A stretch of 64,000 nucleotides of DNA from an uncultured Planctomycetota bacterium (GTDB lineage Bacteria; Planctomycetota; PLA2; JAEUHO01), in NCBI GenBank assembly GCA_963752285.1, contig CAVVXN010000001.1, positions 1-64,000 on the forward strand, in the 5' to 3' direction. The translations under genes were made by a program, and so were the position numbers. Below are positions 23,997-48,565 of this stretch, one piece after another (within the stretch, counting starts at the first letter, position 1; every line of letters begins with the position of its first letter). The notes under the pieces are model-generated. The model was given only the letters and a program-made list of their open reading frames with translations. It was not told the DNA's origin and searched no databases.

Positions 23997-26900
23997 TTAT
24001 TTCACCTTATGCCTGTTCGCTGCGTCCCGTACTTTCTGCTTTGCCTTCTCGCCTTCGGGTCTCTGCCACCTCTGGGCAGTTCCGGCATCCGGATAGTTCC
24101 CTGTATCCGGATCGGGGGGAGGCGTAGGCCCCACGAGGCGGTCTCCCTCCGGCGTATAGTCATCCGGGTGTGGGTTCACCGATCGCCCTGGACCCAGATC
24201 GCTGGCGCTGATGCAACAAGCGAAGACTACGACGAACTGAAAATTGGGACCGCATCCGACGAGGTCGCGCACGCGCCGGTACCCCGTCTTGCTGTAGTCA
24301 TTGTCTCCACATTGGACCTCCCCACTATTATTCCCATGAGCAGCAATAATCAAACCGCCGTACTTGTCAGGGTTCTGCTCCATCTCCTCCAAGAGTTTCT
24401 TCAGTTTCTCCTCGGCCTCCTTGTTGCGCTTGTCGCGTTCCGCATCCTCGGCCTTCACTCGCTCGCGGTACTCCTCATCGCTCTCTCCGGATCTCTGCTC
24501 CGGGGTTGGGGCCCGCCCCGACTCAAACTCCACTACATCCTCATCCCTGACCTCGTACCCAGCATCCTCTGCCGCCTGCTCAATCCCATCAACAACGTCG
24601 TTGAACTCGTCGTTCGCCGGTTGGGTATCTCCATGTGTGAAGTCGCCCGGCCTCGTGTCCCGTATTACCGCGACACGCGGCTTGTCTCCCTTCCCATCCT
24701 CTGAGCCCCAACCAGACGCGTCTCTATATGTCGTGGGGCGACTCCGAACATACTGGTGCAGGCCAAGATCATCGATGTAGCCGAGTGGGTCTCTCTGCAA
24801 GAACCTCCCCTTCCCCGGGTCGTACGTCCTCGCCCGATAGAAGTAGAGCCCGTCCTCCGCGTCGTACTCCCGCCCCGTGAACAGGAAGGGGTTCCCGACC
24901 GGGCTCAGTGAGACGACGTTCCCCTGCGGGTCGAGGATCGCGGGCTTCCCGTACACGTCGTAGGTCGCCCACTCGACGACGCTCCCGCCGGGCTCCGAGA
25001 TCTCGGTCACCGACCCAAGCGCCTGCTGGTGGTACGTGAAGCGGAGCACCTCGGTCGTGTTCTGGTTCCCGTTCACGTCGGCCTGGTCAGCCCGGTCCAT
25101 GACCCGCGGCCGGTCGATCCCGTCCTCGTAGACGTAGCGCGCCTGCCAGACGTCCTGCCCGTCGTACTCCTCGATCACCTGCTGGGCGTCCAGCACGTAC
25201 CGCGTCGTCGCCCCGCCCGACACGGCCTTCTCGACCCGCCGTCCGATCGCGTCGTAGCGGTAAGTGGCAATGAGCGCCTGCGTCGCTTTGAGCTTCACCT
25301 CGACCAGCCGGTTCTCGAAGTCGTACGCGAAGAGGTAGGTCCCGTCGTCGGTCAGGTTCCCGTTGTTGTCGTGCGTCCGGGTGACGCCGCCGACCTGGGT
25401 GTACTGGTTCACCACGTCCGAAGCGTACGTCACGGTCGAGGGCGGGGTCGGCGGGGTCGTGAGCGTCTGGCTCCGGTTCCCGAGCCCGTCCAGCACGTAC
25501 TGGGCGTTCTTGGCGAAGGCCTGGCTCCCCGGGTTCTGGACCTCCTGGAGGGGATTCGTCGTGTCGTAGCGGACGTCCGTCAGGCGGTACGCCCAGTCGT
25601 AGGCGTAGACGTCCCCCTTGGTGTTGCGGGCCGCGAGGAAGGTCTGGACGGCCTGCGGAAGGGTCCCGACCCAGGTGGCGTCGAACGTGTTCTGCTCCAT
25701 CCGCCGGTTGTGGGCCCGATCGTAGGCGTAGGTGAACTTGTGGAGCGTCTGCCCGCTTCCGAGCTTGTGGTCGATGTCCTGGATCCGGGCGAAGCCGTCC
25801 CAGGCGTACTCGGTCGAGGTCCCGTTCTGGTTCGAGGTCGTCGCGAGCCGGCCCGCACCCTGGTACGTGAACGTCGCGATGTTCGTCCCCGCCCCCACGT
25901 CCTGGAGCGCGGTCATGCGGTAGATCGCGTCCCGCGTGTGGGCGGCCGCGAAGGCGCTCGGGTAGAGGACGCTCTGCACACTCGAGGCGTCCGACCACGT
26001 CGTCGTGACCGACTTCCACTTCTCCTGACCCTGGGCGTTGTAGCCCTGGCGCTCCTTCAAGAGGTTCCCCACGCTGTCCCAGGTGAGCTCGACCTGGAAG
26101 TCGTCATCGACGGCGGTGAGCGCCCTCCCGAGGACGTCGTAGGTGAACTGCTCGAACGTGCTCCCGAGGACCCCCGTCCCACGCGTCACGCTCGCATACG
26201 TCTTCCGGTCGAGCGCGTCGAAGGTGTTCTGGACGACCGTCCCGTTCTGATCGGTCCACTGCGACACGTTCGAGGCCGGGTCGTACTGGGTGTCGACGTA
26301 CCGCGTGTCCGCGTACGTGACGCGGGTCTGGCGATCTCGCGCGTCGAACTGATACGACGTCGAATCGAAGTTGTCGTCGGTCAGGCCCGTCAATCGATCA
26401 TTGCCGTCGTACTGGAAGCTCTCCGTGATCGACTGCGTGAAGTCCTCGATCGTCTGGCCGGTCTGGAGCGCACGCTCGTAGGTGAGGAGCCGGCTTGCGA
26501 GGTCGTATGTCCACCGGACCGGATGGGACTCGGCATCCAGCCGCCACGTCAGGTCGTTTCGGCTGTCGTAGCCGAGATTCGTCGTGAGAACGTTCTGGCC
26601 GTTCGACCGATCGATCTCGCGCCTCTGGGTCACGCGATTGATCGCATCGTAGTCGAACTCGGTCACGAACGTCTCGCTCCCGCCCCCGGCCGGGAGGTCG
26701 GTGTGGGAGCGGGTCGTGACGTTCCCGTTCGCGTCGAGGGAGAAGTCGTCGTGGTCGCCCATCGCGTCGAGGACCTGGACGAGGCGTGCCGCGGCGTCGA
26801 GCGAGTAGCTCGTGCTGTTCGAGAGGGGATCCGTTACTTGCGTCACGAGCCCGGTCGGGTCCCTCGTGATGATCGTCGTCGGCTGGCTCGGCGTCAGGTT

Positions 26901-29900
26901 CGGGCCGAAGCGGTCGTCGACCGTCTTCCAGAGCCGGTCCACCTCGTCGAAGTAACGCGTCGTCCGCGCGAGGAGCGCCGCCTGGCTGTCGTAGGCCTCG
27001 ACCAGCGTCTGGTTCCCCGACTTGTCGTATTGAAACGCCCGGTACGCGCCGAGGGCGTCCGTGACGCGCGTTCGACGGTCGAACAGGTCGTGATCGTACG
27101 TGGTCTCGTACGAGCGCGGGTTCTTCGAGGTCGCGAGCGAGCCGTTCAAATCGTAGGCGTACTCGATGGTCCCCTCGACCGCGCTCCCGGCTCCGAGGTG
27201 GACCTTGAAGGGGAGGTGGCGCTCGTCCCACTCGTAGCTCGTGACCCCGCCCTCGGGCTTCGTCACGGAGATGACTTCGCCGCTTCCGTCGTAGGCCCAG
27301 GTCGTGGTCGCCGTCGTGCTCGCGGTCAGGTCCACGGCCCTCGTGAGCATCCGCCCCACGATGTCGTAGGTGAACGACGTGTCGATCCACGGCGTCGTCG
27401 GGTCCTGGGTCCCGTGCCGATCGAGGTTCTCCAACTCGACGAGCGTCACCCGACGATCGGCGTCGTACGTGAGTCTGCGGCGGTAGGAGAGGGGCGACGG
27501 CGCCTGGACCTCCGTCACGTAGCCCTCCGCGTCGACGGATATGGCGGTCGTCGCCCCGCGCGCGTCCGTCACCGACACGACGTCCCCGTACTGGCTGTAG
27601 TCGAGCGTGGTCGTGAGCGCGAGCCCGGCTTGGTCCTTCGTCACCGACTGGAGGTAGCCGGCGTGGGACCCGGTCGTGTAGTACGAGAAGTCGACCGTCC
27701 GGCCGGCGCCGTCGGTCGCATTCGTGATCCGGCCCCGGCCGTCGAAGGAGAACGTCTCGGTGATCGTCTGCGTGCTCGGGCTCGTCACCGTGGGGCGCTG
27801 GATCTGCGTCGTGTTGCCCTGGGCGTCGACCTGGTAGACGGTGACGTTCCCCCGCGGGTCCGTGTACTGCGTCCGCTGGTTGTAGGGCCCGTACTGGTAG
27901 GAATGGACGATGTCCGTCCCCGAGTTGTTCGGAGTGTTCGTCTCCTTCCGCCGGAGCTCCGAGAGGTTCAGGGCGGCGTCATAGCGGTAGTCGACCCTGT
28001 TGCCGGCCGGGAACGCCGCGTACCGGATGAGGCCGGTCGTCTGGTCGACCCCGAACGTGGTGACGTACGACGTCGGCTCCCCCTGCCTGAGCCCCTTCGT
28101 GAAGACCTCCTCCTTGATCGGCACGCCGAACGTCGAGAAGGTCCACTCGACCGTGTTCCCGGAACGGTCCACGACCGCCGTCTTCGTGTCCGACCCGCCA
28201 AGGGCCGTATAGCTCATCGTGTAGGAGCCGTCTCCGATCGTCTCGCCGACGACACGGTCGTACCCGTCGTAGTAGAGCGTCTCTACCTTGTCCCCCGTGG
28301 GGCTCCAGACGTGCACCAGGTTGTGCGCCAGCGTCGGGTTCGTGTTGTTGCCCGTGTAGGAGAACCACACGGAGCGGCCCTGCGGGAACTGGGTCGAGCT
28401 CGGGGTCGTCACGCGCTTCAACTGCCCCAGGTAGTCGTACGTGAGGGTCCAGGTCCGCCCCCCGAAGTCCGTGATGCTCGAGAGGCGACCATCCGTCCCG
28501 TAGGACAGCGTGTAGCTCCGGTTGAGCGTGTCGGTCACCCCGGTCAGCTGGTCTCCGCTCCAGGTGTAGGAGAGGGCGTTCCCGTAGCGGTCCTGGACCT
28601 GCGTCCGGTAACCGTTCAGGAACGTGCTCGTCGTGCCAAATCGTGTCACGAGGGTCGACGTCTGCCCCTGGACGCCGAGAGTCGAGTCGTACTGCGGCGG
28701 CGGCACGAAGCTCCCGTTTCCCGCCAGCACGAACCGGTCGGCGCGGCCCCGGCCGTTCAAGTACGTCTGGTCCCCGTTCGTCTCCGCCCGGGTCCTCACG
28801 TCCTGGTTCAGCGTCCAGCCCTTCCCGTACCGGTAGTCGTAGCCGATGCGGGAGTGGTAGGTGAGCGTGAACTCTGCATCGAGCCCCACACCGGGCACGC
28901 CAAAGAGCGGGAGCGAGTAGACCTCCTCGGCGGTCGCGAACTCGACGCTCCCCTCGGTGGCCGGCGGCCACGCGTCGTTCGGAAGGTACTGGGGATCGGG
29001 ATAGCCCGAGAGCCCGCCTCGACCGAAACCCTCGCCGTCGAGGCACGAGCCGCAGCGGCTGGGGGTCGTGGACTGGACCCCCGAGGAGCTCGTCTGGACG
29101 AGCCCCGTCCCCGTCCCCGTGATCGTCGGGCTCGCTCCGGGGTTCCAGAGCACGTTGTCGAGGATGGAACGCCCCGACTCGCCCGCGGCGCTCGACCCCG
29201 TGTTCGCCACGAGCACGTAGAGGTCCTCGAAGCTCCCGGCCGGGTCGATCCACGACGACCCGCCCCCGGCCGGCGGCATGTTGGGCTCGATGTTGATCCA
29301 GCCGACCTGAAGGACGTTGGCGGGGTCGGCCGCGTCGAAGTAGTAGGCGTCGGTCCCGCCGGTGAGCCCCGGACAGAAGACGGTCAGGAACTGCCCGGCC
29401 GACGTCACGTCCGAGGCCCCCACGGCCGGTCCCGTCCAGACGGGCGGCGCCGTGAACGTGAAGAAGGCCCCGGTGTAGGGGAGCTGGAGCAGATAGGCCA
29501 TCCCCGTGACCGCGTCCGTCGCGGAGACGTAGGCCTCGTTGTCCAGGCTCGTGATGCCGGTGGGCACGGCCGGCGGCGGCCCCCAGGTCGGAAACGACGC
29601 GGGCGTCATGGCCGTCCGGTCGAAGAACGACACACCCACGAACCCGGGACCCGTACGGCCGAGGAGCATCAGATAGCGGGTCGCGGGGTTGCCGCTCGGC
29701 CTCACCTCGATCAGCTCGGTCGCCGTGGCGAAGGGGATGGCGGTCGCCGGAGCGAACACCCCGCCCACGAGGAACTGGTCGAGCCAGGCGCGGTTTCGGT
29801 CGTAGCCCCACGCGTAGAGCGCGCCTCCGAGCAGGTTGTCGGCCGTGATCTGGCTGTAGTTGGCCGCGGGGTTGCTGAGGGAGAGCGTCGCCACGCCGGT

Positions 29901-30302
29901 GGCGGGGTCGACGGTCCAGACCTGCCCGTTGTTGCAGCCGACGACGAGCTGCTGGAGCGAGACCGACCAGTCCATGTCCATGCAGGTGTTGGGCGGGATC
30001 GGGAGCGTCAGGGTCCCGGTCGAGAGGTTCGCCTTCGGGTCGACGACCGTCACGGTCGAGTTCCCGCTGTTCAGGACGTAGGCGGCGCTCCCGTCGGCAA
30101 GCGTCACCGTGTCCACCGGGTTCGGCCCCGTCGGAATCCCCTGGGCCAAGGCACCCGGCAGGTGCCCCACGAGGAGCACGACCAGGACGAGCCCCACGAT
30201 CTCGGGCCATCTCCCCCGGATCTCGGGGAGCGTCGCGGCCAACCCCCTCTCCTCGATCCGACGCGGCCGGCGGACGTTCTCGCTCCGGCTCTTCTTCGAC
30301 AC
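23997..30302 (-). CDS. Full-length Rhs/YD-repeat polymorphic toxin 1 (signal peptide, YVTN-like propeller, DUF6531-like region, Rhs core, caspase-like CT)
   Basis: GTG start by analogy to 44085. Continuous YD repeats. RFLQRDPLG...DASG, then a CT with IIAAHG and VVFAC. Confidence 0.9.
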   Translation of the reverse strand: MSKKSRSENVRRPRRIEERGLAATLPEIRGRWPEIVGLVLVVLLVGHLPGALAQGIPTGPNPVDTVTLADGSAAYVLNSGNSTVTVVDPKANLSTGTLTLPIPPNTCMDMDWSVSLQQLVVGCNNGQVWTVDPATGVATLSLSNPAANYSQITADNLLGGALYAWGYDRNRAWLDQFLVGGVFAPATAIPFATATELIEVRPSGNPATRYLMLLGRTGPGFVGVSFFDRTAMTPASFPTWGPPPAVPTGITSLDNEAYVSATDAVTGMAYLLQLPYTGAFFTFTAPPVWTGPAVGASDVTSAGQFLTVFCPGLTGGTDAYYFDAADPANVLQVGWINIEPNMPPAGGGSSWIDPAGSFEDLYVLVANTGSSAAGESGRSILDNVLWNPGASPTITGTGTGLVQTSSSGVQSTTPSRCGSCLDGEGFGRGGLSGYPDPQYLPNDAWPPATEGSVEFATAEEVYSLPLFGVPGVGLDAEFTLTYHSRIGYDYRYGKGWTLNQDVRTRAETNGDQTYLNGRGRADRFVLAGNGSFVPPPQYDSTLGVQGQTSTLVTRFGTTSTFLNGYRTQVQDRYGNALSYTWSGDQLTGVTDTLNRSYTLSYGTDGRLSSITDFGGRTWTLTYDYLGQLKRVTTPSSTQFPQGRSVWFSYTGNNTNPTLAHNLVHVWSPTGDKVETLYYDGYDRVVGETIGDGSYTMSYTALGGSDTKTAVVDRSGNTVEWTFSTFGVPIKEEVFTKGLRQGEPTSYVTTFGVDQTTGLIRYAAFPAGNRVDYRYDAALNLSELRRKETNTPNNSGTDIVHSYQYGPYNQRTQYTDPRGNVTVYQVDAQGNTTQIQRPTVTSPSTQTITETFSFDGRGRITNATDGAGRTVDFSYYTTGSHAGYLQSVTKDQAGLALTTTLDYSQYGDVVSVTDARGATTAISVDAEGYVTEVQAPSPLSYRRRLTYDADRRVTLVELENLDRHGTQDPTTPWIDTSFTYDIVGRMLTRAVDLTASTTATTTWAYDGSGEVISVTKPEGGVTSYEWDERHLPFKVHLGAGSAVEGTIEYAYDLNGSLATSKNPRSYETTYDHDLFDRRTRVTDALGAYRAFQYDKSGNQTLVEAYDSQAALLARTTRYFDEVDRLWKTVDDRFGPNLTPSQPTTIITRDPTGLVTQVTDPLSNSTSYSLDAAARLVQVLDAMGDHDDFSLDANGNVTTRSHTDLPAGGGSETFVTEFDYDAINRVTQRREIDRSNGQNVLTTNLGYDSRNDLTWRLDAESHPVRWTYDLASRLLTYERALQTGQTIEDFTQSITESFQYDGNDRLTGLTDDNFDSTSYQFDARDRQTRVTYADTRYVDTQYDPASNVSQWTDQNGTVVQNTFDALDRKTYASVTRGTGVLGSTFEQFTYDVLGRALTAVDDDFQVELTWDSVGNLLKERQGYNAQGQEKWKSVTTTWSDASSVQSVLYPSAFAAAHTRDAIYRMTALQDVGAGTNIATFTYQGAGRLATTSNQNGTSTEYAWDGFARIQDIDHKLGSGQTLHKFTYAYDRAHNRRMEQNTFDATWVGTLPQAVQTFLAARNTKGDVYAYDWAYRLTDVRYDTTNPLQEVQNPGSQAFAKNAQYVLDGLGNRSQTLTTPPTPPSTVTYASDVVNQYTQVGGVTRTHDNNGNLTDDGTYLFAYDFENRLVEVKLKATQALIATYRYDAIGRRVEKAVSGGATTRYVLDAQQVIEEYDGQDVWQARYVYEDGIDRPRVMDRADQADVNGNQNTTEVLRFTYHQQALGSVTEISEPGGSVVEWATYDVYGKPAILDPQGNVVSLSPVGNPFLFTGREYDAEDGLYFYRARTYDPGKGRFLQRDPLGYIDDLGLHQYVRSRPTTYRDASGWGSEDGKGDKPRVAVIRDTRPGDFTHGDTQPANDEFNDVVDGIEQAAEDAGYEVRDEDVVEFESGRAPTPEQRSGESDEEYRERVKAEDAERDKRNKEAEEKLKKLLEEMEQNPDKYGGLIIAAHGNNSGEVQCGDNDYSKTGYRRVRDLVGCGPNFQFVVVFACCISASDLGPGRSVNPHPDDYTPEGDRLVGPTPPPDPDTGNYPDAGTAQRWQRPEGEKAKQKVRDAANRHKVK

Positions 30303-30318
30303 GGCCTCCCCCTCTCCC

Positions 30319-31440
30319 CTACCAGGTCGCGTTCGAGATCTGGTTCTTGGCCTGCGTGGCCGTGGCCGCGATCGACGGGTTCGCATTGGCCGCATCTGCG
30401 GACATCGTCGTGAGCCCCGACTTGTCGTGGAGCTGGAGGAGCGCGAGAGCGGCCTCGCGCCGGACCGAGAACGTGGTCGAGCCGAGGAGCGTCTTCAAGG
30501 TCGGCACCACCTGGCTCGAGATGTCCGAGGAGACCCTGCCCGCGATCTTCGCGGCGAGCCCCTGGACCCGCGGATCCGTGTCGCCGAGCAAGAGGAGCAC
30601 GGCGCTCCGGTTCTGGGCCGCGCCCCCGAGGAGCCCCAGGCCCTGGAGCGCCGTCCACCGGACCGTCGCGTCCGCATCCGTGAGCGCCGCCGCGTAGGTC
30701 GAGCCCTGGTTCTTGTCCCCGGTCCGGACCATCGCGGAGAGAGCCCGACTCCGAACCCACGCCTGGCTGTTGCTCGCGAGAGCCGTGAGCTCGCTCAGGG
30801 CCTTGGCCTCTCCGAGCGCGTCGATCGCGTTCTCGCGCTCCGCCCGCGACGCCTTGCTCTCCCGCGCGAGGTCGTAGACGTCGGAGAGCCCGTCGCTCGA
30901 CACGACCGCGAGCGCACGCACGGCGGCGTCCCGGACCGCGCGAGGGGCATTCTCGTCCCCGGCGACCTGCCGGAGGTCGCCGGTCGCGGTGCCACCGGCC
31001 TGCCCGAGGCCCCGCACCGCCACCACGCGGATCGAGGCGAGCTCCTCGGGATCCTGCGCACGGCTCGAAAGCGTGCCAAGCGCGCCGCTCGCATGGCGCG
31101 CGAGGATCCGGACCGCCGCCGCCCGCGTCACCACGTCGTTCGAGGACGCGAGCGAGACGACACCCGTGAGTTGGCTCGTGGAGAGGCTCATCCGCCCGAT
31201 CGCCTCGGCGAGGCCCGCCTTGACGAGCGCCGAGGCGTCGCTGTCGAGGACCTGGAGCAGGTCGTCGAGTCGCGACGGCTCCGAGGCGAGCTGCGCGATC
31301 GTCGCCTCACGCGCGCTCCCGTCGGCGTTCGAGAGCTCGTTCACGAACGACGGCTGCTCCGTCACGTCCGCGAGGAGCCAGGCACCGCCTCCCACGACGA
31401 GCACCACCGCGAGAGGACCCCACCGTCTCGAGGAACGCAT
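30319..31440 (-). CDS. HEAT-repeat protein with N-terminal signal/anchor
   Basis: Repeats such as DADATVRWTALQGLG and DTDPRVQGLAAK. GGGAGG ribosome-binding site upstream. Confidence 0.85.
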   Translation of the reverse strand: MRSSRRWGPLAVVLVVGGGAWLLADVTEQPSFVNELSNADGSAREATIAQLASEPSRLDDLLQVLDSDASALVKAGLAEAIGRMSLSTSQLTGVVSLASSNDVVTRAAAVRILARHASGALGTLSSRAQDPEELASIRVVAVRGLGQAGGTATGDLRQVAGDENAPRAVRDAAVRALAVVSSDGLSDVYDLARESKASRAERENAIDALGEAKALSELTALASNSQAWVRSRALSAMVRTGDKNQGSTYAAALTDADATVRWTALQGLGLLGGAAQNRSAVLLLLGDTDPRVQGLAAKIAGRVSSDISSQVVPTLKTLLGSTTFSVRREAALALLQLHDKSGLTTMSADAANANPSIAATATQAKNQISNATW

Positions 31441-31579
31441 GAGCGCGACCTCCCTTCTCGTACGGCACCATCTCGTCCGAGGGGGAGAGTGGCGCCGCCT
31501 ACGTCACAGCGCAAGTGGGGACCGACCCGATCCATGAGGAATTCGTAGGGGTTGCCACAATCTTGCAGCGCGGCGTTCC

Positions 31580-32458
31580 CTAGCGCGACAGCGTCAGTGT
31601 TGCCTGCTGCGCGCCCGCAACACGCCGCACGCGCACGTCGCCGGTCACCTCGTTTCCAAATGCGGCGAGAGCACGCGAAACGTCCGAGACGGCGTGGTCC
31701 CCGATACGCTCGATCACATCTCCCGGCTTGAGGCCGAGTTGCGCAATCTGGCTCTCTCCGCGAACGCCGGTCACGCGCACACCGGTGACGCGGCCCTCGG
31801 CTCCGTAGAACGGGACGAGCTTCACGTCTCCCGCCGCGCTCGTTCCCGACGCAACCTCAGCGCGGCCAGCGTCTTCCACCGCTTCCGGGGCCGTCCCGCC
31901 TCGCCGCAGAGGCCCGACACCCCGCACGCGGCGATCGATCGGATGGTCGAGGGGCACGACGAACGTGAAGGTCTCCTCGCCTCGTGCGAGCGTGATCAGG
32001 CCTTCGCGGTCCCTCTCCTCGATCCGGCGGATGACGACGCCTTGGTCCGGCCGCCCCTCCGAGACCACGTAGGTCTCGGGGTGCGCGGGGTCCTTCGAGA
32101 CGAGCACCACCGCGTCGGGACCCGCGGGGTCCCGCCACCAGGCCGCGATCTTGTGGGCCGAGAGCGGCAGGGACGTGGCCTGCCCCACGATCACGTCGGC
32201 ATGCCTCGGTGGCTGGCGCTCCGGGAACTCGCACGGCCACCACCGGCTCACCTCCCTCACGAGGTCCGCCCACGCGACGGGGCCCGAGCGAGGCGGGGCC
32301 GCGGGCGGAGGCAGGGCGCGCGCGTCGAGAGCGGCGCCGGTCTCAGGCCTTCCCCCCGCCCCGCCCGCGAGCAGGGCCCACCACGCCCACACGGCCGCGA
32401 CCAGGAGCGCGCCGTTCAGGCGCCAGAGCCAGCGGCGCGCGAGGAACACGCGGAGCAC
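31580..32458 (-). CDS. GspC-like protein: N-terminal TM helix, beta-rich middle domain, C-terminal PDZ
   Basis: WRLNGALLVAAVWAWW TM segment. GVRVTGVRGESQIAQLGLKPGDVIERIG PDZ signature. Confidence 0.75.
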   Translation of the reverse strand: MLRVFLARRWLWRLNGALLVAAVWAWWALLAGGAGGRPETGAALDARALPPPAAPPRSGPVAWADLVREVSRWWPCEFPERQPPRHADVIVGQATSLPLSAHKIAAWWRDPAGPDAVVLVSKDPAHPETYVVSEGRPDQGVVIRRIEERDREGLITLARGEETFTFVVPLDHPIDRRVRGVGPLRRGGTAPEAVEDAGRAEVASGTSAAGDVKLVPFYGAEGRVTGVRVTGVRGESQIAQLGLKPGDVIERIGDHAVSDVSRALAAFGNEVTGDVRVRRVAGAQQATLTLSR

Positions 32459-36099: not shown

Positions 36100-37749
36100 T
36101 CACGGGCCGTTGGCGGTTCGGTCCAGAGCCAACCGCACTGCACGTGCAATCACTGGGTCCGGGTCCGAGACCGCCTGTTCCAACTGGCCCCTTATTCGTG
36201 AACACCTTCGCCCGTAGTTGGCGAGGGCTATGGCGGCGTCTCTTCCGAATTCGACTCCCATCGTCTTCGATCGCAACTCGTTCGCCAGCGTCTCGCAAAC
36301 CGCCGGCTCTCTATCCAAGTACCATCCCAGGTAGGAGGCAAGGTAAGCCCGCGTTCGCGGTCGGATCCTGTCCTCGTGTAGCGCTTGGCGAATGCGCGCG
36401 CTCGCGTCTTCATTCCACTCGCACACGACGAAGCGTCCTGCCGCGGACGCCGCCAATTCGTTGTCGGATAGCGCGACGTCCAGGAGGGCCGATCGAGCAA
36501 CCGACCACTGTTCCGCCAGACGCGTCAACGCGGTGAGCGCACCAGACCTGGAGTGGGCATACATGGAGCGGGCACGCTCGTCGATCATACCGCGGAGCCG
36601 GGAAACTGCGTCCTCCACGTACAGGCCTACGTGTGTGTCCGCGCGCGAGCCCTCTCTGATAAGACGAGAGAGAACCTCCTCCGGGCATGGGCGTTGTCCT
36701 GTCGGAGTGTCGAACGTACTCGCGTGGCCAACGACCCTCACGTTGGTCAGCCAAGGCGATCGGTATACGTGCTCCCCCAACCGCAACCAGCCCAGGCCCT
36801 CTCTAGTCCCAGCTTGGTGCTGAAGCGTCGACTCCCACTCCTCGCAAAGTGGAGCGACGAGTGCCACCGAGTACCCCGCCTCCCTGAGGACCCCGAGGCA
36901 ATCATCGGGTGGCCCTAGATGCCACGAGCCGACGAGTATCACGAGTTTTCGCCTCTTGGACGATCCGGAACGACAGACCTCCTCGGCTAGGAGCCTGATG
37001 CGGTCCCCATAGGTTGGCTTTGATCGCCCAGGGTAGAACCCGAACCCATGGAATGCGACGCCGTCGAGACGGGAGTCGGAGAGAAGTGACTCGTACCCCC
37101 GGCTCGGCCAACCCGTCACACTCTCCCGTAATCTTGCCAGGACTTCCCCTCCAGAAGGTCCCCCGCCCGTGCTCGTGGGGTCCCGCTGAATCATCTTTGA
37201 GAATCCCCAAGGCAGCATCTCAAGACCCACGTCCACGCCACCATCCTCATCTGCAGAAGTGGCGACCATGCCCACTACCATCGGGAGGGTCGCAGCTATG
37301 GGGGGCGCATCGTGGCGATCCGGAACGACGATGACGTCGCAACTCGCGAGATCGGCTCGAACAGCGCCTTCATCCACGACAAGCCGATCGAGGTTCTCCG
37401 TCAGTAGTCTCCTCGTGCCCTCTTGAAAAGCCGTTAGATTTTCGCAATTGGTTGAAGACCAGATCCTCATCCAATCCCAGCGATCCGGCACTTGGATCTC
37501 CTCTTGAAGAAGGAGATTCGGCGCCGGCGGCGCGGGCGCTGCCGACACGCCAGCGCCGCCGAGCACTGCGGCGAGGCAGAGCACTCTACACATCATCTCC
37601 GGCGCCGAGAGCCGCAGAGCCCCAAGCGCCCCCCCCGGCAGGCGAGGCTCAGGATCGGCTTCCGCACTACCAGCGGGGGCCACGCCCCCTGCCCGCGCAT
37701 GCTCGTTCCCCAGGTCCGCGCTGCGAGCTTCTTCCGTGGCGTCGTCCAT
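36100..37749 (-). CDS. Putative exported immunity protein (ChaN/TIKI-like GxxH region plus HEAT-like C-terminus)
   Basis: Signal-like MCRVLCLAAVLGGAGVSA. LVILVGSWHL. DPDPVIARAVRLAL. Follows Rhs 2. Confidence 0.6.
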   Translation of the reverse strand: MDDATEEARSADLGNEHARAGGVAPAGSAEADPEPRLPGGALGALRLSAPEMMCRVLCLAAVLGGAGVSAAPAPPAPNLLLQEEIQVPDRWDWMRIWSSTNCENLTAFQEGTRRLLTENLDRLVVDEGAVRADLASCDVIVVPDRHDAPPIAATLPMVVGMVATSADEDGGVDVGLEMLPWGFSKMIQRDPTSTGGGPSGGEVLARLRESVTGWPSRGYESLLSDSRLDGVAFHGFGFYPGRSKPTYGDRIRLLAEEVCRSGSSKRRKLVILVGSWHLGPPDDCLGVLREAGYSVALVAPLCEEWESTLQHQAGTREGLGWLRLGEHVYRSPWLTNVRVVGHASTFDTPTGQRPCPEEVLSRLIREGSRADTHVGLYVEDAVSRLRGMIDERARSMYAHSRSGALTALTRLAEQWSVARSALLDVALSDNELAASAAGRFVVCEWNEDASARIRQALHEDRIRPRTRAYLASYLGWYLDREPAVCETLANELRSKTMGVEFGRDAAIALANYGRRCSRIRGQLEQAVSDPDPVIARAVRLALDRTANGP

Positions 37750-37860: not shown

Positions 37861-40800
37861 CTAACCATCCGGACCAGAGCCGGGCGGGGCATAAGGGGGT
37901 CGACCAGGCTTGTCCGGGTCCCAGTTCTTCCCCCTGAGCATGGGACCTTCGTATGGATTCTGTTCGCACCAATCCCACCTCCACGGAACAGGACCATCGG
38001 GGTTGGGAACCCCGATTAGGCTTCGGAGGAGTCGCTCGCCAGGGCCAAAGTGCCGCCAGAACCACCCATCCGGTAGCGGCTCTGGATACTCAGGAGATGG
38101 TGTCGGCGGCTGTCCAGGTGCGTGTGCAGCAGCTGCAGCCGCGTCCCTCTCGGCCACCTTCCCCTTCAGCTTCTCTTTCCGCTTGCGAGCCTCATGGGCA
38201 GCGACGTCTGCTTGGTTCCACTCGTCCTTCAGCTTGTCGATCTCGCCATTGAGCCTGTCGATCTCCGCGTCTCGGAATCCTTCGGGACTCAAGTTGGCCG
38301 TGGCTTCGCCCCCCGGCGGACCGAAGATGCTACCGTTCTGCCGCCTCTGACGCTCCTGGAGCTGTTCTGGATACATGGTCAGCACCTGGTGGACTTCATT
38401 CTGGAGTTCCTCGATCCGCTTTTCCGCGTCATCCCTTGTCTTGGTGGCCTCCGCTTCGTCCCGCTCGGCTTTCGCGAGCGCGTCATCGAGCTCGTCTCGG
38501 CCCGTCGGGTCACGACCCGATGCCGGCCTCGCATGTACGTACAGGTAAAGCGAAGGAACATCCCGGTACCCGATCGGGTCGCGTTGGATAAACCGACCGC
38601 AACTGGGATCGTACGTGCGCGCGCGATGGAAATAGAGCCCGTCCTCCGCGTCATACTCCCGCCCCGTGAACAGGTACGGATTCCCGACCGGGCTCTGGCC
38701 GACGACGTTCCCCTGCTGGTCGAGGATCCTGGGCTTCCCGTAGACGTCGTACGTCACCCACTCGACGACGCTCCCGCCCGGTTCCGAGAGCTCCGTCACC
38801 GACCCCAGCGCCTGCTGGTGGTAGGTGAAACGGAGCACCTCCGTCGTGTTCTGGTTCCCGTTCACGTCCGCCTGGTCGGCCCGGTCCATGACGCGTGGAT
38901 GGTCGATCCCGTCCTCGTAGACGTATCGCGCCTGCCAGACGTCGCTTCCGTCGTACTCCTCGATCACCTGCTGGCCGTCGAGCACGTACCGCGTCGTCGC
39001 GCCGCCGGACACGGCCTTCTCGACCCGCCGCCCGAGCGCGTCATAGCGGTAGGTCGCGACGACGGCCTGGGTCGCCTTCAGCTTCACCTCGACCAGCCGG
39101 TTCTCGAAGTCGTACGCGAAGAGGTAGGTCCCGTCGTCGGTCAGGTTCCCGTTGTTGTCGTGGGTCCGGGTGACGCCGCCGACCTGGGTGTACTGGTTCA
39201 CCACGTCCGAAGCGTACGTCACGGTCGAGGGCGGGGTAGGCGGCGTGGTCAGGACCTGGCTCCGGTTCCCGAGGCCGTCCATGACGTACTGGGTGTTCTT
39301 GGCGAAGGTCTGGCTCCCGGGGTTCTGCACCTCCTGGAGGGGGCTCGTCGTGTCGTAGCGGACGTCCGTCAGGCGGTACGCCCAGTCGTAGGCGTAGACG
39401 TCCCCCTTGGTGTTCCGGGCCGTTAGGAAGGTCTGGACGGCCTGGGGCAGCGTCCCGACCCACGTGGCGTCGAAGGTGTTCTGCTCCATGCGCCGGTTGT
39501 GGGCCCGATCGTAGGCGTAGGTGAACTTGTGGAGCGTCTGCCCGCTTCCGAGCTTGTGGTCGATGTCCTGGATCCGGGCGAAGCCGTCCCAGGCGTACTC
39601 GGTCGAGGTCCCGTTCTGGTTCGAGGTCGTCGCGAGCCGGCCCGCACCCTGGTACGTGAACGTCGCGATGTTCGTCCCCGCCCCCACGTCCTGGAGCGCG
39701 GTCATGCGGTAGATCGCGTCCCGCGTGTGGGCGGCCGCGAAGGCGCTCGGGTAGAGGACGCTCTGGACGCTCGAGGCGTCCGACCACGTCGTCGTGACCG
39801 ACTTCCACTTCTCCTGACCCTGGGCGTTGTAGCCCTGGCGCTCCTTCAAGAGGTTCCCCACGCTGTCCCAGGTGAGATCGTCCTGGAAGTCGTCGTCGAC
39901 GGCCGTGAGCATCCGCCCGAGGGCGTCGTACGTGAACTGCTCGAACGTGCTCCCGAGGACCCCCGTCCCACGCGTCACGCTCGCGTAGGTCTTCCGGCCG
40001 AGCGCGTCGAACGTGTTCTGGACCACCGTCCCGTTCTGATCGGTCCACTGCGACACGTTCGAGGCCGGGTCGTACTGGGTGTCGACGTACCGCGTGTCCG
40101 CGTACGTGACGCGGGTCTGGCGATCTCGCGCGTCGAACTGATACGACGTCGAATCGAAGTTGTCGTCGGTCAGGCCCGTCAATCGATCATTGCCGTCGTA
40201 CTGGAAGCTCTCCGTGATCGACTGCGTGAAGTCCTCGATCGTCTGGCCGGTCTGGAGCGCCCGCTCGTAGGTGAGGAGCCGGCTTGCGAGGTCGTATGTC
40301 CACCGGACCGGATGGGACTCGGCATCCAGCCGCCACGTCAGGTCGTTTCGGCTGTCGTAGCCGAGATTCGTCGTGAGAACGTTCTGGCCGTTCGACCGAT
40401 CGATCTCGCGCCTCTGGGTCACGCGATTGATCGCATCGTAGTCGAACTCGGTCACGAACGTCTCGCTCCCGCCCCCGGCCGGGAGGTCGGTGTGGGAGCG
40501 GGTCGTGATGTTCCCGTTCGCGTCGAGGGAGAAGTCGTCGTGGTTTCCCGTCGCGTCGAGGATCTGGACGAGCCTCGCCGCGGCGTCGAACGAGTAGCTC
40601 GTGCTGTTCGAGAGGGGATCCGTGACCTGGGTCACGAGGCCCGATGGGTCCCTCGTGACGATCGTGGTCGGCTGGCTCGGCGTCAGGTTCGGGCCGAAGC
40701 GGTCGTCAACCGTCTTCCAGAGCCGGTCCACCTCGTCGAAGTAACGCGCCGTCCGCGCGAGCAGCGCCGCCTGGCTGTCGTAGGCCTCGACCAGCGTCTG

Positions 40801-43800
40801 GTTCCCCGACTTGTCGTATTGAAACGCCCGGTACGCGCCGAGGGCGTCCGTGACGCGCGTCCGTCGATCGAAGTGGTCGTGCTCGAACGTGGTCTCGTAC
40901 GAGCGCGGGTTCTTCGAGGTCGCGAGCGAGCCGTTTAAGTCATAAGCGTATTCAAAGGTCCCTTCGACGGCACTCCCCGCGCCTGCGCGCACCTTATGGA
41001 TGAGGCGACGCTCGTCCCACTCCAGCGCAGTCACTCCGCCCTCGGGCCTCGTCACCGAGACGAGGTCGCCGCTTCCGTCGTAGGCGTATGTGGTCGTCGC
41101 GGTCGTTGTAGACGTCAGGTCCACTGTCTTTGCGAGGGGCCGTCCCACGACGTCGTAGGTGAACGACGTCTCGATCCACGGCGTCGTCGGGTCCTGTGTC
41201 CCGTGGCGGTCGACGTTCTCGACCTCGACGAGGGTCACGCGCCGGCCGGCGTCGTACGTGAGCCGGCGGCGGTAGGAGAGGGGCGACGGGGCCTGCACCT
41301 CCGTCACGTAGCCCTCCGCGTCGACGGATATGGCGGTCGTTGCCCCGCGCGCGTCCGTCACCGACACGATGTCGCCGTACTGGCTGTAGTCGAGCGTGGT
41401 CGTGAGCGCGAGCCCTGCCTGGTCCTTCGTCACCGACTGGAGGTACCCGGCGTGGGACCCTGTCGTGTAGTAGACGAAGTCGACCGTCCGGCCGGCGCCA
41501 TCGGTCGCGTTCGTGATGCGGCCCCGGCCGTCGAACGAGAACGTCTCGGTGATCGTCTGCGTGCTCGGGCTCGTCACCGTCGGCCGCTGGATCTGCGTGG
41601 TGTTGCCCTGGGCGTCGACCTGGTAGACGGTGATGTTCCCCCGCGGGTCCGTGTACTGGGACCTCTGGTTGAAGGGCCCGCCGTACTGGTAGGAGTACAC
41701 GATGTCCGTGCCGGACTGGTTCGGGGTATCCGTTTCCTTGCGCCGCACCTCGACCAGGTTCAGCGCGCTGTCGTACTGGTAGTCGGTCCGGTTTCCCGCC
41801 GGGGCGCTCACGTGCGTCACCAAACCCGTCGTCTGGTCGACCCCCATGGTGGTCACGTACGAGTTCGGCTCCCCCTGCCGAAGGCCCTTGGTGAAGACCT
41901 CCTCCTTGATCGGCACGCCGAACGTCGAGAAGGTCCACTCGGTCGTGTTCCCGGATCGGTCCACCACGGTGGTCTTCGTGTCGGACCCCATGAGGGACGC
42001 ATAGCTCATCGCGTACGAGCCGTCCCCGATCGTCTCCTTCACGACCCGATCGTAGCCGTCATAGTACAGCGTCTGGACCCCGTCGCCGAGCGGGCTCCAC
42101 ACGTGAACCAGATTGCTTGCGAGCGCGGAGTTCGTGCTGTTCCCCGTGTAGGAGAACCACACGGAGCGCCCCTGTGGGAACTGGGTAGAGGCAGGCGTCG
42201 TCACGCGCTTCAACTGCCCCATGTAGTCGTACGTGAGGGTCCAGGTCCGACCCCCGAAGTCGGTGATGCTCGAGAGCCTTCCATCCGTCCCGTACGAGAG
42301 CGTGTAGCTCCGGTTGAGAGTGTCGGTGATCGACGTCAACTGGTCGCCCGTCCACGAGTACGTGAGCGCGTTTCCGTAGCGGTCCTGGACCTGCGTCCGG
42401 TACCCGTTCTGGAAGGTGCTGGCGGTCCCAAACCGACTGGTGAGCGTCGCCGTCGTCCCTTGCACGTTGAGCGTCGAATCGTAGCGGACCGGAGGAACGA
42501 AACTTCCCCCTCCTGCCGAAGCGAAGGTGTCGGCCCGACCGTGCCCATTGAGGTAGGTCTCGTCGCCGTTCGGCTCCGTGCGAAGCCTCACGTCCTGGTC
42601 GAGCGTCCAGCCCCTTCCGTAGCGATAGTCGTAACCGATTCTCGATCGATAGGTCAGGTTCACGCCCAGGTCCATCCCCACGCCGGGGATCTTGAAGAGC
42701 GGCAGCGAGTAGACCTCCTCGGCGGTCGCGAACTCGACGCTGCAGGCAGTCGCCGGGAAGTCCTTCCGAACGTCCGGATCGGGCCAGGCGTCGATCCAGC
42801 CCCGCCCGAGGAACTCCTCGTCCATACATGCGCCGCACCCACTCGGAGTCGTCGGCTGGACCGCCGAGGAGCTCGTCTGGACGAGCCCCGTCCCCGTCCC
42901 CGTGATCGTCGGGCTCGCTCCGGGGTTCCAGAGCACGTTGTCGAGGATGGAACGCCCCGACTCGCCCGCGGCGCTCGACCCCGTGTTCGCCACGAGCACG
43001 TAGAGGTCCTCGAAGCTCCCGGCCGGGTCGATCCACGACGACCCGCCCCCGGCCGGCGGCATGTTGGGCTCGATGTTGATCCAGCCGACCTGAAGGACGT
43101 TGGCGGGGTCGGCCGCGTCGAAGTAGTAGGCGTCGGTCCCGCCGGTGAGCCCCGGACAGAAGACGGTCAGGAACTGCCCGGCCGACGTCACGTCCGAGGC
43201 CCCCACGGCCGGTCCCGTCCAGACGGGCGGCGCCGTGAACGTGAAGAAGGCCCCGGTGTAGGGGAGCTGGAGCAGATAGGCCATCCCCGTGACCGCGTCC
43301 GTCGCGGAGACGTAGGCCTCGTTGTCCAGGCTCGTGATGCCGGTGGGCACGGCCGGCGGCGGCCCCCAGGTCGGAAACGACGCGGGCGTCATGGCCGTCC
43401 GGTCGAAGAACGACACACCCACGAACCCGGGACCCGTACGGCCGAGGAGCATCAGATAGCGGGTCGCGGGGTTGCCGCTCGGCCTCACCTCGATCAGCTC
43501 GGTCGCCGTGGCGAAGGGGATGGCGGTCGCCGGAGCGAACACCCCGCCCACGAGGAACTGGTCGAGCCAGGCGCGGTTTCGGTCGTAGCCCCACGCGTAG
43601 AGCGCGCCTCCGAGCAGGTTGTCGGCCGTGATCTGGCTGTAGTTGGCCGCGGGGTTGCTGAGGGAGAGCGTCGCCACGCCGGTGGCGGGGTCGACGGTCC
43701 AGACCTGCCCGTTGTTGCAGCCGACGACGAGCTGCTGGAGCGAGACCGACCAGTCCATGTCCATGCAGGTGTTGGGCGGGATCGGGAGCGTCAGGGTCCC

Positions 43801-44085
43801 GGTCGAGAGGTTCGCCTTCGGGTCGACGACCGTCACGGTCGAGTTCCCGCTGTTCAGGACGTAGGCGGCGCTCCCGTCGGCAAGCGTCACCGTGTCCACC
43901 GGGTTCGGCCCCGTCGGAATCCCCTGGGCCAAGGCACCCGGCAGGTGCCCCACGAGGAGCACGACCAGGACGAGCCCCACGATCTCGGGCCATCTCCCCC
44001 GGATCTCGGGGAGCGTCGCGGCCAACCCCCTCTCCTCGATCCGACGCGGCCGGCGGACGTTCTCGCTCCGGCTCTTCTTCGACAC
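37861..44085 (-). CDS. Full-length Rhs/YD-repeat polymorphic toxin 2 (coiled-coil, Pro-rich CT)
   Basis: 2074 aa with the same architecture as 23997-30302. DPTG followed by a different CT. Confidence 0.92.
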   Translation of the reverse strand: MSKKSRSENVRRPRRIEERGLAATLPEIRGRWPEIVGLVLVVLLVGHLPGALAQGIPTGPNPVDTVTLADGSAAYVLNSGNSTVTVVDPKANLSTGTLTLPIPPNTCMDMDWSVSLQQLVVGCNNGQVWTVDPATGVATLSLSNPAANYSQITADNLLGGALYAWGYDRNRAWLDQFLVGGVFAPATAIPFATATELIEVRPSGNPATRYLMLLGRTGPGFVGVSFFDRTAMTPASFPTWGPPPAVPTGITSLDNEAYVSATDAVTGMAYLLQLPYTGAFFTFTAPPVWTGPAVGASDVTSAGQFLTVFCPGLTGGTDAYYFDAADPANVLQVGWINIEPNMPPAGGGSSWIDPAGSFEDLYVLVANTGSSAAGESGRSILDNVLWNPGASPTITGTGTGLVQTSSSAVQPTTPSGCGACMDEEFLGRGWIDAWPDPDVRKDFPATACSVEFATAEEVYSLPLFKIPGVGMDLGVNLTYRSRIGYDYRYGRGWTLDQDVRLRTEPNGDETYLNGHGRADTFASAGGGSFVPPVRYDSTLNVQGTTATLTSRFGTASTFQNGYRTQVQDRYGNALTYSWTGDQLTSITDTLNRSYTLSYGTDGRLSSITDFGGRTWTLTYDYMGQLKRVTTPASTQFPQGRSVWFSYTGNSTNSALASNLVHVWSPLGDGVQTLYYDGYDRVVKETIGDGSYAMSYASLMGSDTKTTVVDRSGNTTEWTFSTFGVPIKEEVFTKGLRQGEPNSYVTTMGVDQTTGLVTHVSAPAGNRTDYQYDSALNLVEVRRKETDTPNQSGTDIVYSYQYGGPFNQRSQYTDPRGNITVYQVDAQGNTTQIQRPTVTSPSTQTITETFSFDGRGRITNATDGAGRTVDFVYYTTGSHAGYLQSVTKDQAGLALTTTLDYSQYGDIVSVTDARGATTAISVDAEGYVTEVQAPSPLSYRRRLTYDAGRRVTLVEVENVDRHGTQDPTTPWIETSFTYDVVGRPLAKTVDLTSTTTATTTYAYDGSGDLVSVTRPEGGVTALEWDERRLIHKVRAGAGSAVEGTFEYAYDLNGSLATSKNPRSYETTFEHDHFDRRTRVTDALGAYRAFQYDKSGNQTLVEAYDSQAALLARTARYFDEVDRLWKTVDDRFGPNLTPSQPTTIVTRDPSGLVTQVTDPLSNSTSYSFDAAARLVQILDATGNHDDFSLDANGNITTRSHTDLPAGGGSETFVTEFDYDAINRVTQRREIDRSNGQNVLTTNLGYDSRNDLTWRLDAESHPVRWTYDLASRLLTYERALQTGQTIEDFTQSITESFQYDGNDRLTGLTDDNFDSTSYQFDARDRQTRVTYADTRYVDTQYDPASNVSQWTDQNGTVVQNTFDALGRKTYASVTRGTGVLGSTFEQFTYDALGRMLTAVDDDFQDDLTWDSVGNLLKERQGYNAQGQEKWKSVTTTWSDASSVQSVLYPSAFAAAHTRDAIYRMTALQDVGAGTNIATFTYQGAGRLATTSNQNGTSTEYAWDGFARIQDIDHKLGSGQTLHKFTYAYDRAHNRRMEQNTFDATWVGTLPQAVQTFLTARNTKGDVYAYDWAYRLTDVRYDTTSPLQEVQNPGSQTFAKNTQYVMDGLGNRSQVLTTPPTPPSTVTYASDVVNQYTQVGGVTRTHDNNGNLTDDGTYLFAYDFENRLVEVKLKATQAVVATYRYDALGRRVEKAVSGGATTRYVLDGQQVIEEYDGSDVWQARYVYEDGIDHPRVMDRADQADVNGNQNTTEVLRFTYHQQALGSVTELSEPGGSVVEWVTYDVYGKPRILDQQGNVVGQSPVGNPYLFTGREYDAEDGLYFHRARTYDPSCGRFIQRDPIGYRDVPSLYLYVHARPASGRDPTGRDELDDALAKAERDEAEATKTRDDAEKRIEELQNEVHQVLTMYPEQLQERQRRQNGSIFGPPGGEATANLSPEGFRDAEIDRLNGEIDKLKDEWNQADVAAHEARKRKEKLKGKVAERDAAAAAAHAPGQPPTPSPEYPEPLPDGWFWRHFGPGERLLRSLIGVPNPDGPVPWRWDWCEQNPYEGPMLRGKNWDPDKPGRPPYAPPGSGPDG

Positions 44086-44101: not shown

Positions 44102-45225
44102 CTACCAGGTCGCGTTCGAGATCTGGCTCACGGCCTGCGTGGCCGTGGCCGCGATCGACGGGTTCGTCGATGGCGGCATCGGCCTGACATCGTCGTGAAG
44201 CCCCGACTTGTCGTGGAGCTGGAGGAGCGCGAGCGCGGCCTCGCGACGGACCGAGAACGTGGTGGAGCCGAGGAGCGTCTTGAGGCCGGCGTCACCTGGC
44301 TCGAGATGTCCGAGGAGATCGCGCCCGTGATCTTCGCGGCGAGCCCCTGGACCCGCGGGTCGGTGTCGTCAGGAGCAGGAGCACCGCACTTCGGTTCTGG
44401 GCCGCACCTCCGAGGAGCCCCAGGCCCTGGAGCGCCGTCCAGCGGACCGTCGCGTCTGCGTCCGGAGCGCGCGCCGCGTAGGTGGAGGCGTGGGTCTTGT
44501 CGTCGGTCCGGACCATCGCCGTCAGCGCTCGGCTCCGGACCCAGGCCTGGGTGTGGCTCGCCAGTGCCGTGAGCTCGCTGAAGGCCTTGCGCCTCGCCGA
44601 GCGCGTCGATCGCGTTCTCGCGCTCCGACCGCGAGGCCTTGCTCTCCCGCGCGAGGTCGTAGACGTCCAAGAGCCCGTCGCTCGACACGACCGCGAGCGC
44701 GCGAACGGCGGCGTCCCGGACCGCACGAGGGGCCTTCTCGTCCCCGGCAACCTGTCGAAGGTCCGGGAGCGCCGTGCCCCCCGCCGCGCCGAGGCCCCGG
44801 ACGGCCACGACGCGGATCGAGGCGAGCTCCGCACCATCCTGCGCACGAGCCGCGAGCGTCGTCCGCGCGCCGCTCGCGTGTCGCGCGAGGATCCGAACCG
44901 CCGCCGCCCGCGTCACCACGTCGCTCGAAGAGGCGAGGGTCACGATCCCCGAGAGACTGTTCGTCGAGAGGCTCATTCTCCCGATGGCCTCGGCGAGGCC
45001 CGCCTTGACGATCGGCGCGGCGTCGCTCTCGAGGACGTCGAGCATGTCCGCAAGGCGCGACGGCTCCGACGCGAGCTGCTTGATCGTCGCCTCACGCGCG
45101 GTTCCGTCGGAGCTCGAGAGATCGTTCACGAACGCGGGCTCGGTCGTCACGTCGGCGAGCAGCAGCGCCCCGCCTCCCACGACGAGCACCACCGCGAGAG
45201 GACCCCACCTTCTCGAGGAACGCAT
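44102..45225 (-). pseudogene. HEAT-repeat protein copy 2, frameshifted
   Basis: Paralogue of 30319-31440 with several indels in 44100-44600. Confidence 0.8.
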
Positions 45226-48552: not shown

Positions 48553-48565
48553 GCTTTGGGCCCCC

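Follow-up and report, generated by a model that had tools for sequence, protein, structure and literature searches.

We analyzed a 64 kb stretch of contig CAVVXN010000001.1 with a high G+C content (62–72%), hereafter called the window, in which Pfam scans covered 102 open reading frames (ORFs). On its minus strand, a gene for a PDZ-domain protein is followed by a gene for a HEAT-repeat protein, a full-length Rhs gene and a large ORF at 32458–22468, and the same order is found again at 46246–36100. The arrangement is best described as a protein of the GspC type whose gene, outside a gsp operon, is paired with that of a HEAT protein and precedes those of signal-peptide Rhs toxins. The genes of these two units, and of a third and reduced locus, are as follows:

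31580..32458, minus strand: PDZ copy 1, 292 aa
30319..31440, minus strand: HEAT copy 1, 373 aa, intact
23997..30302, minus strand: Rhs1, full length, ~2100 aa, with leader, N-domain, DUF6531, RHS repeats, core end and its own C-terminal domain
28854..30302, minus strand: 5′ part of Rhs1, signal-peptide-like leader and ~420-aa N-terminal domain with a YVTN-like segment
22468..23961, minus strand: ORF 3′ of Rhs1, 497 aa, 36 nt past the Rhs1 stop
45365..46246, minus strand: PDZ copy 2, 78% aa identity to copy 1
44105..45225, minus strand: HEAT copy 2, broken, three frame changes
37861..44085, minus strand: Rhs2, full length, 2074 aa, leader and N-domain as in Rhs1, C-terminal domain different
36100..37749, minus strand: ORF 3′ of Rhs2, 549 aa
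50631..51509, minus strand: PDZ copy 3, 292 aa, intact, 56% aa identity
49448..50446, minus strand: Rhs core-end fragment after PDZ copy 3, 83% identity by tblastn, corresponding to Rhs2 residues ~1528–1860, with Pfam RHS_repeat and TEN_YD-shell
47887..49152, minus strand: ORF 3′ of the copy-3 Rhs fragment, 421 aa, without a significant family

In total, three PDZ copies, two HEAT copies and two Rhs N-domains were obtained by tblastn in the window, and Rhs sequence lies directly downstream of all three PDZ genes. At the third locus tblastn found neither a HEAT gene nor an Rhs N-domain, and the Rhs fragment there begins ~190 bp after PDZ copy 3, near Rhs residue 1528. The gap between the HEAT stop and the Rhs start is ~16 nt, and the PDZ–HEAT spacer of 139 nt is ~99% identical between copies. 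A scan of 29800–33000 for promoters and terminators found neither, with a sigma-70 consensus that may not suit the host. By self-comparison, units 1 and 2 constitute one 7.7-kb duplication (24817–32475 versus 38605–46263, ~90% identical), and windowed alignment of the two resolved a mosaic, in which blocks of 100% identity are embedded in sequence of 70–95% identity. One such block covers the Rhs leader and N-domain (29132–30331 versus 42920–44119), and another the 3′ half of the PDZ gene together with the spacer (~31528–31977 versus ~45316–45765). The first ~330 nt (~110 aa) of PDZ copies 1 and 2, by comparison, are only ~60% identical in DNA, with the C-terminal ~150 aa nearly identical. This mosaic pattern suggests gene conversion or assembly collapse.

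Both full-length Rhs proteins match Pfam RHS_repeat (E=3.3e-39 for Rhs1 and 9.6e-43 for Rhs2) as well as DUF6531, and their C-termini are unrelated beyond the core ends DPLGYIDDLGL (Rhs1) and DPIGYRD (Rhs2). Rhs1 probably starts at the GTG at 30302 rather than at the ORF extension to 30395, because copy 2 and the relative P0178 start there. The N-terminus consists of a long basic region and a hydrophobic run, IVGLVLVVLLVG, followed by ALA/QG, and the same leader layout, ending in ARA/AS, is found in P0179, a 2155-aa Rhs protein with 36% identity over the N-domain; together with P0178 (84% identity) it represents the relatives of the Rhs N-domain found in other assemblies. We infer that the leader is cleaved by signal peptidase. 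Directly behind it, residues 52–107 match the YVTN beta-propeller surface-layer protein 1l0q (E=3.4e-6), and Pfam gave a weak beta-propeller match to the N-domain (E=0.0096). The basic region, hydrophobic stretch ending ALA-Q and YVTN-like repeat that the first-pass annotation had read at this N-terminus were thus borne out by the translations, the P0179 layout and the 1l0q match. Among Rhs1, Rhs2 and their relatives, the leader and N-domain are conserved and the C-terminal domains differ. These proteins would be classed as Rhs/YD-repeat polymorphic toxins, as they have RHS repeats and a core-end motif, their C-terminal domain varies and is followed by a downstream gene, and orphan cassettes accompany them.

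The 497-aa and 549-aa ORFs downstream of Rhs1 and Rhs2 are candidate immunity genes by their position only; neither matched a Pfam family at E≤0.01, and the 497-aa ORF gave only a weak GNAT match (E=0.025). The C-terminal domain of Rhs1 (23997–24800, minus strand) is likewise without a Pfam family match. Inspection by eye found ...IIAAHGN... and ...FACC... motifs in it after a charged coiled-coil-like stretch, and these motifs bring to mind a His/Cys protease dyad. Coiled-coil-like stretches likewise open the C-terminal domains of Rhs2 and P0179.

HEAT copy 1 is composed of repeats throughout, with Pfam HEAT_2 matching at E=2.2e-24 in 6–7 stretches and designed alphaRep HEAT proteins in the PDB matching with E values down to 5e-22. 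It begins with MRSSRR and a hydrophobic segment, MRSSRRWGPLAVVLVVGGGAWLLA, which may be a signal peptide or a membrane anchor, and this N-terminal segment is kept in the homologues from a metagenome-assembled genome (MAG) described below. A Tat-type leader (SRRWGPL) was considered and dropped, since the MAG homologues are without the RR pair. The C-terminus reads ...SNATW, and its ...NATW end is a possible PDZ ligand. HEAT copy 2 could be read by tblastn with HEAT1 only in the successive frames +2, +3, +2 and +1, with indels of 1–3 nt in the DNA alignment, and appears to be either a pseudogene or the product of assembly errors. The HEAT protein was also considered as a cognate immunity protein and rejected, on account of its upstream position and its conservation between units with different toxin domains.

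The PDZ protein was modeled with AlphaFold2 (AF2). With 34 homologues, the model of copy 1 reached a mean predicted local distance difference test (pLDDT) score of 80.4 and exceeded 90 in both folded domains; an earlier model from 5 sequences had been poor (pLDDT 52). The basic N-terminus (RRWLWRLNG) runs into a hydrophobic stretch, and the model places a transmembrane (TM) helix at residues 2–31 (pLDDT ~75–95), a short helix at 63–71, a middle domain of six consecutive strands at 102–169 (~68 residues, pLDDT ~95), a disordered linker at ~172–210 and the PDZ domain at 212–290. Pfam PDZ was matched in 29 of the 34 family members, and PDB profile comparison matched the domain to DegP/DegQ at E=2e-17. 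Two conserved motifs are the family's own: RRWLWRxNG, where the chain enters the membrane, and SKDPAHP, within the beta domain.

We then quantitatively compared this protein with GspC, the component of type II secretion systems (T2SS) to which the first-pass annotation had likened it. NCBIfam models matched family members in the order GspC_delta (32/34), DegP/HtrA subfamily (27/34), T2SS_C_SYNERG (21/34) and TIGR01713 (12/34). For the window's own protein (P0001), GspC_delta gave E=1.3e-9 versus 0.016 for the best non-GspC model (DegP protease), and in separate scans of 13 members at E≤1e-4, GspC_delta appeared for 12 and ranked first for 11. A profile–profile comparison, as that annotation had proposed, against a GspC-like set (E. 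coli GspC relatives together with the profile-search hits P0101, P0147 and P0155) gave 97.6% probability and E=3e-12 over residues 108–287, but the signal is carried by the PDZ part alone, for which hhalign gave E=1.9e-16 against the same set. The family profile extends to P0155 in one stretch (positions 98–282, E=6.4e-6 in a search of 1.84 billion proteins), and P0155 is a bona fide GspC_delta protein (178.5 bits versus a cut-off of 150). For the whole protein, the language-model (Atlas) neighbours begin with its own family, and GspC clusters come next at 0.94–0.95. After removal of the PDZ domain, residues 1–175 had T2SSC clusters (98–100% of members) and XpsN as neighbours at a score of 0.88, which is used as a lead only.

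Structure-based searches were dominated by the PDZ domain. Among the best 60 matches of a PDB profile search were HtrA-family and RseP PDZ domains and no GspC chain, and whole-model Foldseek against the PDB, with both the good and the poor model, returned PDZ matches only (HtrA/DegQ/EpsC) and left the middle domain unmatched; the Vibrio EpsC PDZ domain was found at E ~0.13 with the poor model. One point supports an HR-like middle domain: its strand count is six, and GspC's HR domain is described as a sandwich of six consecutive strands (PMC3169554). The PDZ domain thus appears to be of the GspC type, and the protein is built like GspC and carries such a domain, without being a demonstrable member of the family. 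Two further proteins have GspC_delta-like parts in other contexts: P0111 combines a GspD-like N0 domain and a GspC_delta-type C-terminal PDZ part in one 273-aa protein, and in P0074 an IS481-type transposase and a GspC_delta-like protein are fused or misjoined.

The extent of the PDZ family depended on the search. A word-based homologue search found four relatives, two of them the window's own, and an exhaustive profile search of 1.84 billion representatives listed 565 proteins at E≤1e-3, of which 57 reached E≤1e-10 and 19 reached E≤1e-30. With a hidden Markov model (HMM) of the middle domain, 53 of the 174 stored proteins were matched at E<1e-10, a count that includes five of the window's own translations and excludes P0061, a repeat protein with partial stretches that are individually insignificant. 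By these matches the family would comprise roughly 50 clusters at 50% identity. It has no Pfam or NCBIfam model of its own, and tblastn of the PDZ protein against plasmids gave no match. Named members are annotated as “Planctomycetes bacterium” or “Planctomycetota bacterium”, the nearest Atlas clusters are mostly Planctomycetota, and the sole source in a genome scan was also a planctomycete, so that the family is probably planctomycete. Many members lie on contigs of 1–2.5 kb, which is expected beside repeats and is weak evidence.

That genome scan used the single pattern RRWLWR[LA]N[GA], which leaves distant family members unsampled, and two of its 38 matches lie in genes for relatives. These two genes come from a single Planctomycetia MAG, on short contigs of 3162 and 2152 bp, and in both loci (2/2) the PDZ gene is followed, ~400 bp on and on the same strand, by a HEAT homologue. 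The MAG PDZ proteins are 39% identical to those of the window and 80% identical to each other, and the MAG HEAT proteins show 39–40% identity. In one of the loci (L001), the ORF upstream of the PDZ gene reads like a transposase. Conservation of the PDZ–HEAT pair thus extends past this genome, with more than one copy in the MAG as well. Multiple PDZ copies are unexpected for a core machine part and fit a cargo-linked gene.

Across the 102 ORFs scanned in the window, Pfam found no PAAR, VgrG, Hcp, DUF4123 or DUF1795-type (EagR-type) adaptor and no SpvB/TcA, in agreement with the first-pass annotation, which had seen no PAAR, VgrG, EagR or other marker of type VI secretion systems (T6SS).

Beyond the three PDZ loci, self-comparison and tblastn found the last 400–1500 nt of the Rhs core repeated at eleven places, two of them in the full-length genes and nine as core-end fragments, each of which continues into different 3′ sequence. 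Orphan toxin cassettes are thus spread across the whole length of the window, which is an Rhs array of the classic pattern. The further core-end fragments, and the mobile-element genes that Pfam identified interspersed among them, are as follows:

2023–2933: Rhs core-end fragment
6915–7553: Rhs core-end fragment
10216–10575: Rhs core-end fragment
12348–13940: Rhs core-end fragment
15395–16375: Rhs core-end fragment
18654–20576: Rhs core-end fragment
54641–55213: Rhs core-end fragment
59390–59962: Rhs core-end fragment
63484–63999: Rhs core-end fragment
4840–5646, minus strand: rve integrase
8668–9867, plus strand: IS91-type transposase
10054–11019, plus strand: IS66 C-terminal piece
10565–10912, plus strand: second tyrosine integrase fragment
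20948–21769, plus strand: tyrosine integrase
35136–35609, minus strand: ISAZ013 (“Rhodopirellula”) transposase fragment

A repeat of ~190–330 bp, 80–95% identical, was observed in five copies near cassette ends (372–560, 21947–22276, 52371–52738, 55556–55885 and 60305–60635), and positions 1–583 match 21578–22158 at 95%. At 60592–61282 (plus strand, opposite to an Rhs cassette), neighbouring ORFs match DUF433 (E=1.8e-25) and DUF5615/PIN_10 (E=2.3e-33) and look like a small toxin–antitoxin-type pair. At 32615–33700 (minus strand), beyond the duplication and just upstream of PDZ copy 1, lies the gene for a 361-aa protein in which Pfam recognizes RAMA and HSDR_N_2, and an HTH_3 ORF is located at 33857–34291 (plus strand).

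Based on these data, we give a probability of roughly 40% to the reading that the PDZ and HEAT proteins form a conserved envelope pair, probably planctomycete-specific, which acts on the Sec-exported Rhs protein encoded directly behind them. The Rhs protein would cross the inner membrane via Sec by its conserved cleavable leader, and its invariant beta-propeller-like N-terminal domain would be recognized in the periplasm by the accessory pair. The PDZ protein would be a divergent GspC-type inner-membrane protein, whose PDZ domain may capture the cargo or the HEAT protein and whose six-strand beta domain may dock on a secretin-type outer-membrane channel encoded elsewhere, either T2SS-like or, alternatively, the type IV pilus secretin PilQ. 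The HEAT protein, membrane-anchored or periplasmic, would hold or present the large Rhs protein. All binding, secretin and export roles of the pair are conjectured from this architecture, and a cargo-linked GspC-like accessory module is a plausible description of it. In Vibrio cholerae, the PDZ domain of GspC (EpsC) selects a subset of substrates, and Shannon et al. (2025, PMC12369372) showed one substrate alone to require it, which makes a substrate-dedicated GspC-like protein a reasonable idea. A more specific form of the reading, in which planctomycetes carry cargo-encoded, substrate-dedicated GspC paralogues that, with a periplasmic HEAT protein, plug Sec-exported Rhs cocoons into a secretin, is in our view doubtful.

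Several observations weigh against this reading, some of which concern the likeness to GspC. Pfam T2SSC (PF11356) matched none of the 34 family members at E≤1. The middle domain compared on its own by hhalign was not significant, either against the whole GspC-like set (E=0.27 over 13 columns) or against GspC_delta-type proteins only (E=0.1, with 0.82 for the reversed control), and the corresponding HR-only HMM found no GspC-type protein among the 174 stored, the best match being P0074 at E=0.061. Matches to the GspC model are confined to model positions ~227–290 of 311, which is the PDZ part, the GspC_delta scores of family members are 22–47 bits versus the cut-off of 150, and PDZ domains of the HtrA family give strong matches as well, so that part of the GspC signal could come from resemblance among PDZ domains in general. 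The label “GspC-like” given by the first-pass annotation is supported for the architecture and the PDZ domain (GspC_delta in 32/34, PDZ-only E=1.9e-16), and sequence comparison gave no significant similarity for an HR-like middle domain (T2SSC in 0/34, HR-only E=0.27 and 0.1). Its proposals that a GspC-like adaptor routes Rhs through a T2SS and that the HEAT protein is a chaperone would be purely speculative. The Pfam scans of the 102 ORFs found no gsp gene, secretin or pilus gene. In one survey, very few T2SS were recorded outside Proteobacteria (bioRxiv 10.1101/031039). NCBIfam does include GspC models for non-proteobacterial lineages.

Other points concern the association with Rhs. The order PDZ, HEAT, Rhs and downstream ORF had been reported as occurring twice and a third time in deleted form, and the gene order and coordinates were reproduced, but the two full units are paralogues in one genome and are not independent witnesses, because they are one duplication with identical blocks, and one of them has a broken HEAT gene. 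PDZ2 and Rhs2 are intact beside this broken copy, so that the HEAT protein either can be dispensed with or is provided in trans. At the third locus, an intact PDZ gene stands without a complete Rhs gene. In the MAG, both contigs end inside the HEAT gene, before any Rhs, and the linkage to Rhs is seen in this window only; of the triad that had been expected to be conserved elsewhere, the PDZ–HEAT pair was recovered (2/2 loci of one MAG) but not its Rhs gene. Finally, at ~230 kDa a folded Rhs cocoon is a very large cargo for the channel of a secretin. The broken HEAT copy, the orphaned PDZ copy and the size of the cocoon together tell against a simple export story.

The same observations bear on three other explanations. 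The PDZ–HEAT pair may be an envelope quality-control, signalling or immunity-type module that does not act on Rhs, lies at the 5′ border of a duplicated and recombining Rhs island and shares in its copying. The single duplication with gene-conversion-like blocks, within which co-occurrence is not independent, the broken HEAT copy 2, PDZ copy 3 without a full Rhs gene and the restriction of the Rhs linkage to this window would all be expected from such passive copying, and HEAT-repeat proteins are named among planctomycete immunity proteins (PMC3482391). Nevertheless, the HEAT protein is encoded upstream, is exported or anchored, and is ~65–85% conserved between units with different toxin domains, a misfit for cognate immunity; PDZ and HEAT still occur together in a second genome at an identity of 39%, there as two paralogous copies whose contigs are short and break inside HEAT, as expected beside repeats; and the spacing to the Rhs start is tight. 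We consider passive copying rather unlikely. A further explanation keeps the functional link and dispenses with export: the two proteins would serve as a tether or clustering device that keeps the Sec-exported Rhs protein at the envelope via its constant N-domain, with no secretin or T2SS involved. N-terminal membrane segments in both proteins and the absence of secretion-machine genes from the window scans agree with it, and a constant lineage-specific N-domain together with a conserved exported upstream gene is the MafA/MafB pattern (PMC3482391). An inner-membrane anchor, however, leaves unexplained how the toxin crosses the outer membrane to a neighbour cell, the closest curated families of the PDZ domain are GspC models and not anchoring proteins, and homology to MafA or MafB-N was not seen. 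Such tethering is unlikely in our estimate.

In the remaining explanation, a dedicated system encoded elsewhere would deliver Rhs, for example a T6SS, or a TcA partner like that of Tc toxins which docks on the N-terminal beta-propeller, leaving a secondary part to the PDZ and HEAT proteins. The combination of signal peptide, beta-propeller and RHS repeats is given for the TcdB/TcaC class (PMC3482391), and the 64 kb are the only visible part of the genome. Still, no PAAR, VgrG, Hcp, SpvB or TcA-type family was found in the Rhs proteins or the 102 ORFs scanned, and the conserved Sec-type leader would argue against T6SS loading from the cytoplasm. Delivery by such a system appears very unlikely.

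If the more specific form, in which GspC paralogues plug Rhs cocoons into a secretin, is the correct reading, it would constitute an undescribed, accessory-defined trafficking route for polymorphic toxins in a diderm, and the PDZ protein would be the first T2SS-type specificity factor that travels with its substrate gene. The pair would also show that such a factor can reside with the cargo locus and not with the machine operon. How signal-peptide Rhs toxins cross the outer membrane in diderms is the missing step, for which the accessory pair, with one member resembling the substrate-selecting GspC, is a tangible candidate that can be tested. Should the export idea fail, there is still a sizeable, unnamed PDZ family, probably planctomycete and without a Pfam or NCBIfam model. 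A literature search for a GspC-like/HEAT pair with Rhs found no description.

Among known systems, GspC itself is the closest in build. As represented by NCBIfam GspC_delta (NF041515), it shares with the window protein a length of ~290 aa, a basic N-terminus, one TM helix, a beta domain with six strands in ~70 aa and, after a disordered linker, a PDZ domain at the C-terminus. GspC is encoded with gspD–gspM and binds the N0 domain of the secretin. It differs in that the middle of the window protein is not recognizably HR by sequence, in that the window protein scores far below the curated cut-offs, in that the gene lies outside a gsp operon, beside HEAT and Rhs genes and in three copies within 20 kb, and in that the window protein has its own conserved motifs (RRWLWRxNG and SKDPAHP). 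PilP, the closest structural homologue of the GspC HR domain (PMC3169554), and GspB/OutB (PMC9239104) are likewise small HR-type beta-sandwiches, tethered to the inner membrane and contacting a secretin; unlike the window protein they are without a PDZ domain, and neither was listed in the whole-model Foldseek search.

On the side of the cargo, T6SS-delivered Rhs proteins differ from those of the window, which have a Sec-type leader instead of an N-terminal PAAR or a prePAAR/VgrG/EagR-type neighbourhood. Signal-peptide Rhs/YD toxins, such as WapA of Bacillus, are more similar, sharing the signal peptide, the RHS repeats, the variable C-terminus with a downstream gene and the orphan core-end arrays; here, in contrast, a conserved accessory pair precedes the toxin and the host is presumably diderm. 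Signal-peptide polymorphic toxins, including RHS and beta-propeller forms, were assigned by Zhang et al. (2012, PMC3482391) to a “T2SS/Sec-dependent” route as the default pathway, a class for which Table 1 of that paper gives no signature neighbour genes. MafA/MafB has, as described there, a constant N-domain and a conserved upstream exported gene, with the lipoprotein MafA proposed to anchor MafB. The Neisseria system therefore has the same locus logic as the window, with a signal peptide, a constant N-domain, a variable C-terminal toxin, orphan cassettes and a non-polymorphic exported upstream gene, and differs from it in the lack of a sequence relationship and in that an Rhs cocoon with two accessory genes is found here, not one lipoprotein.

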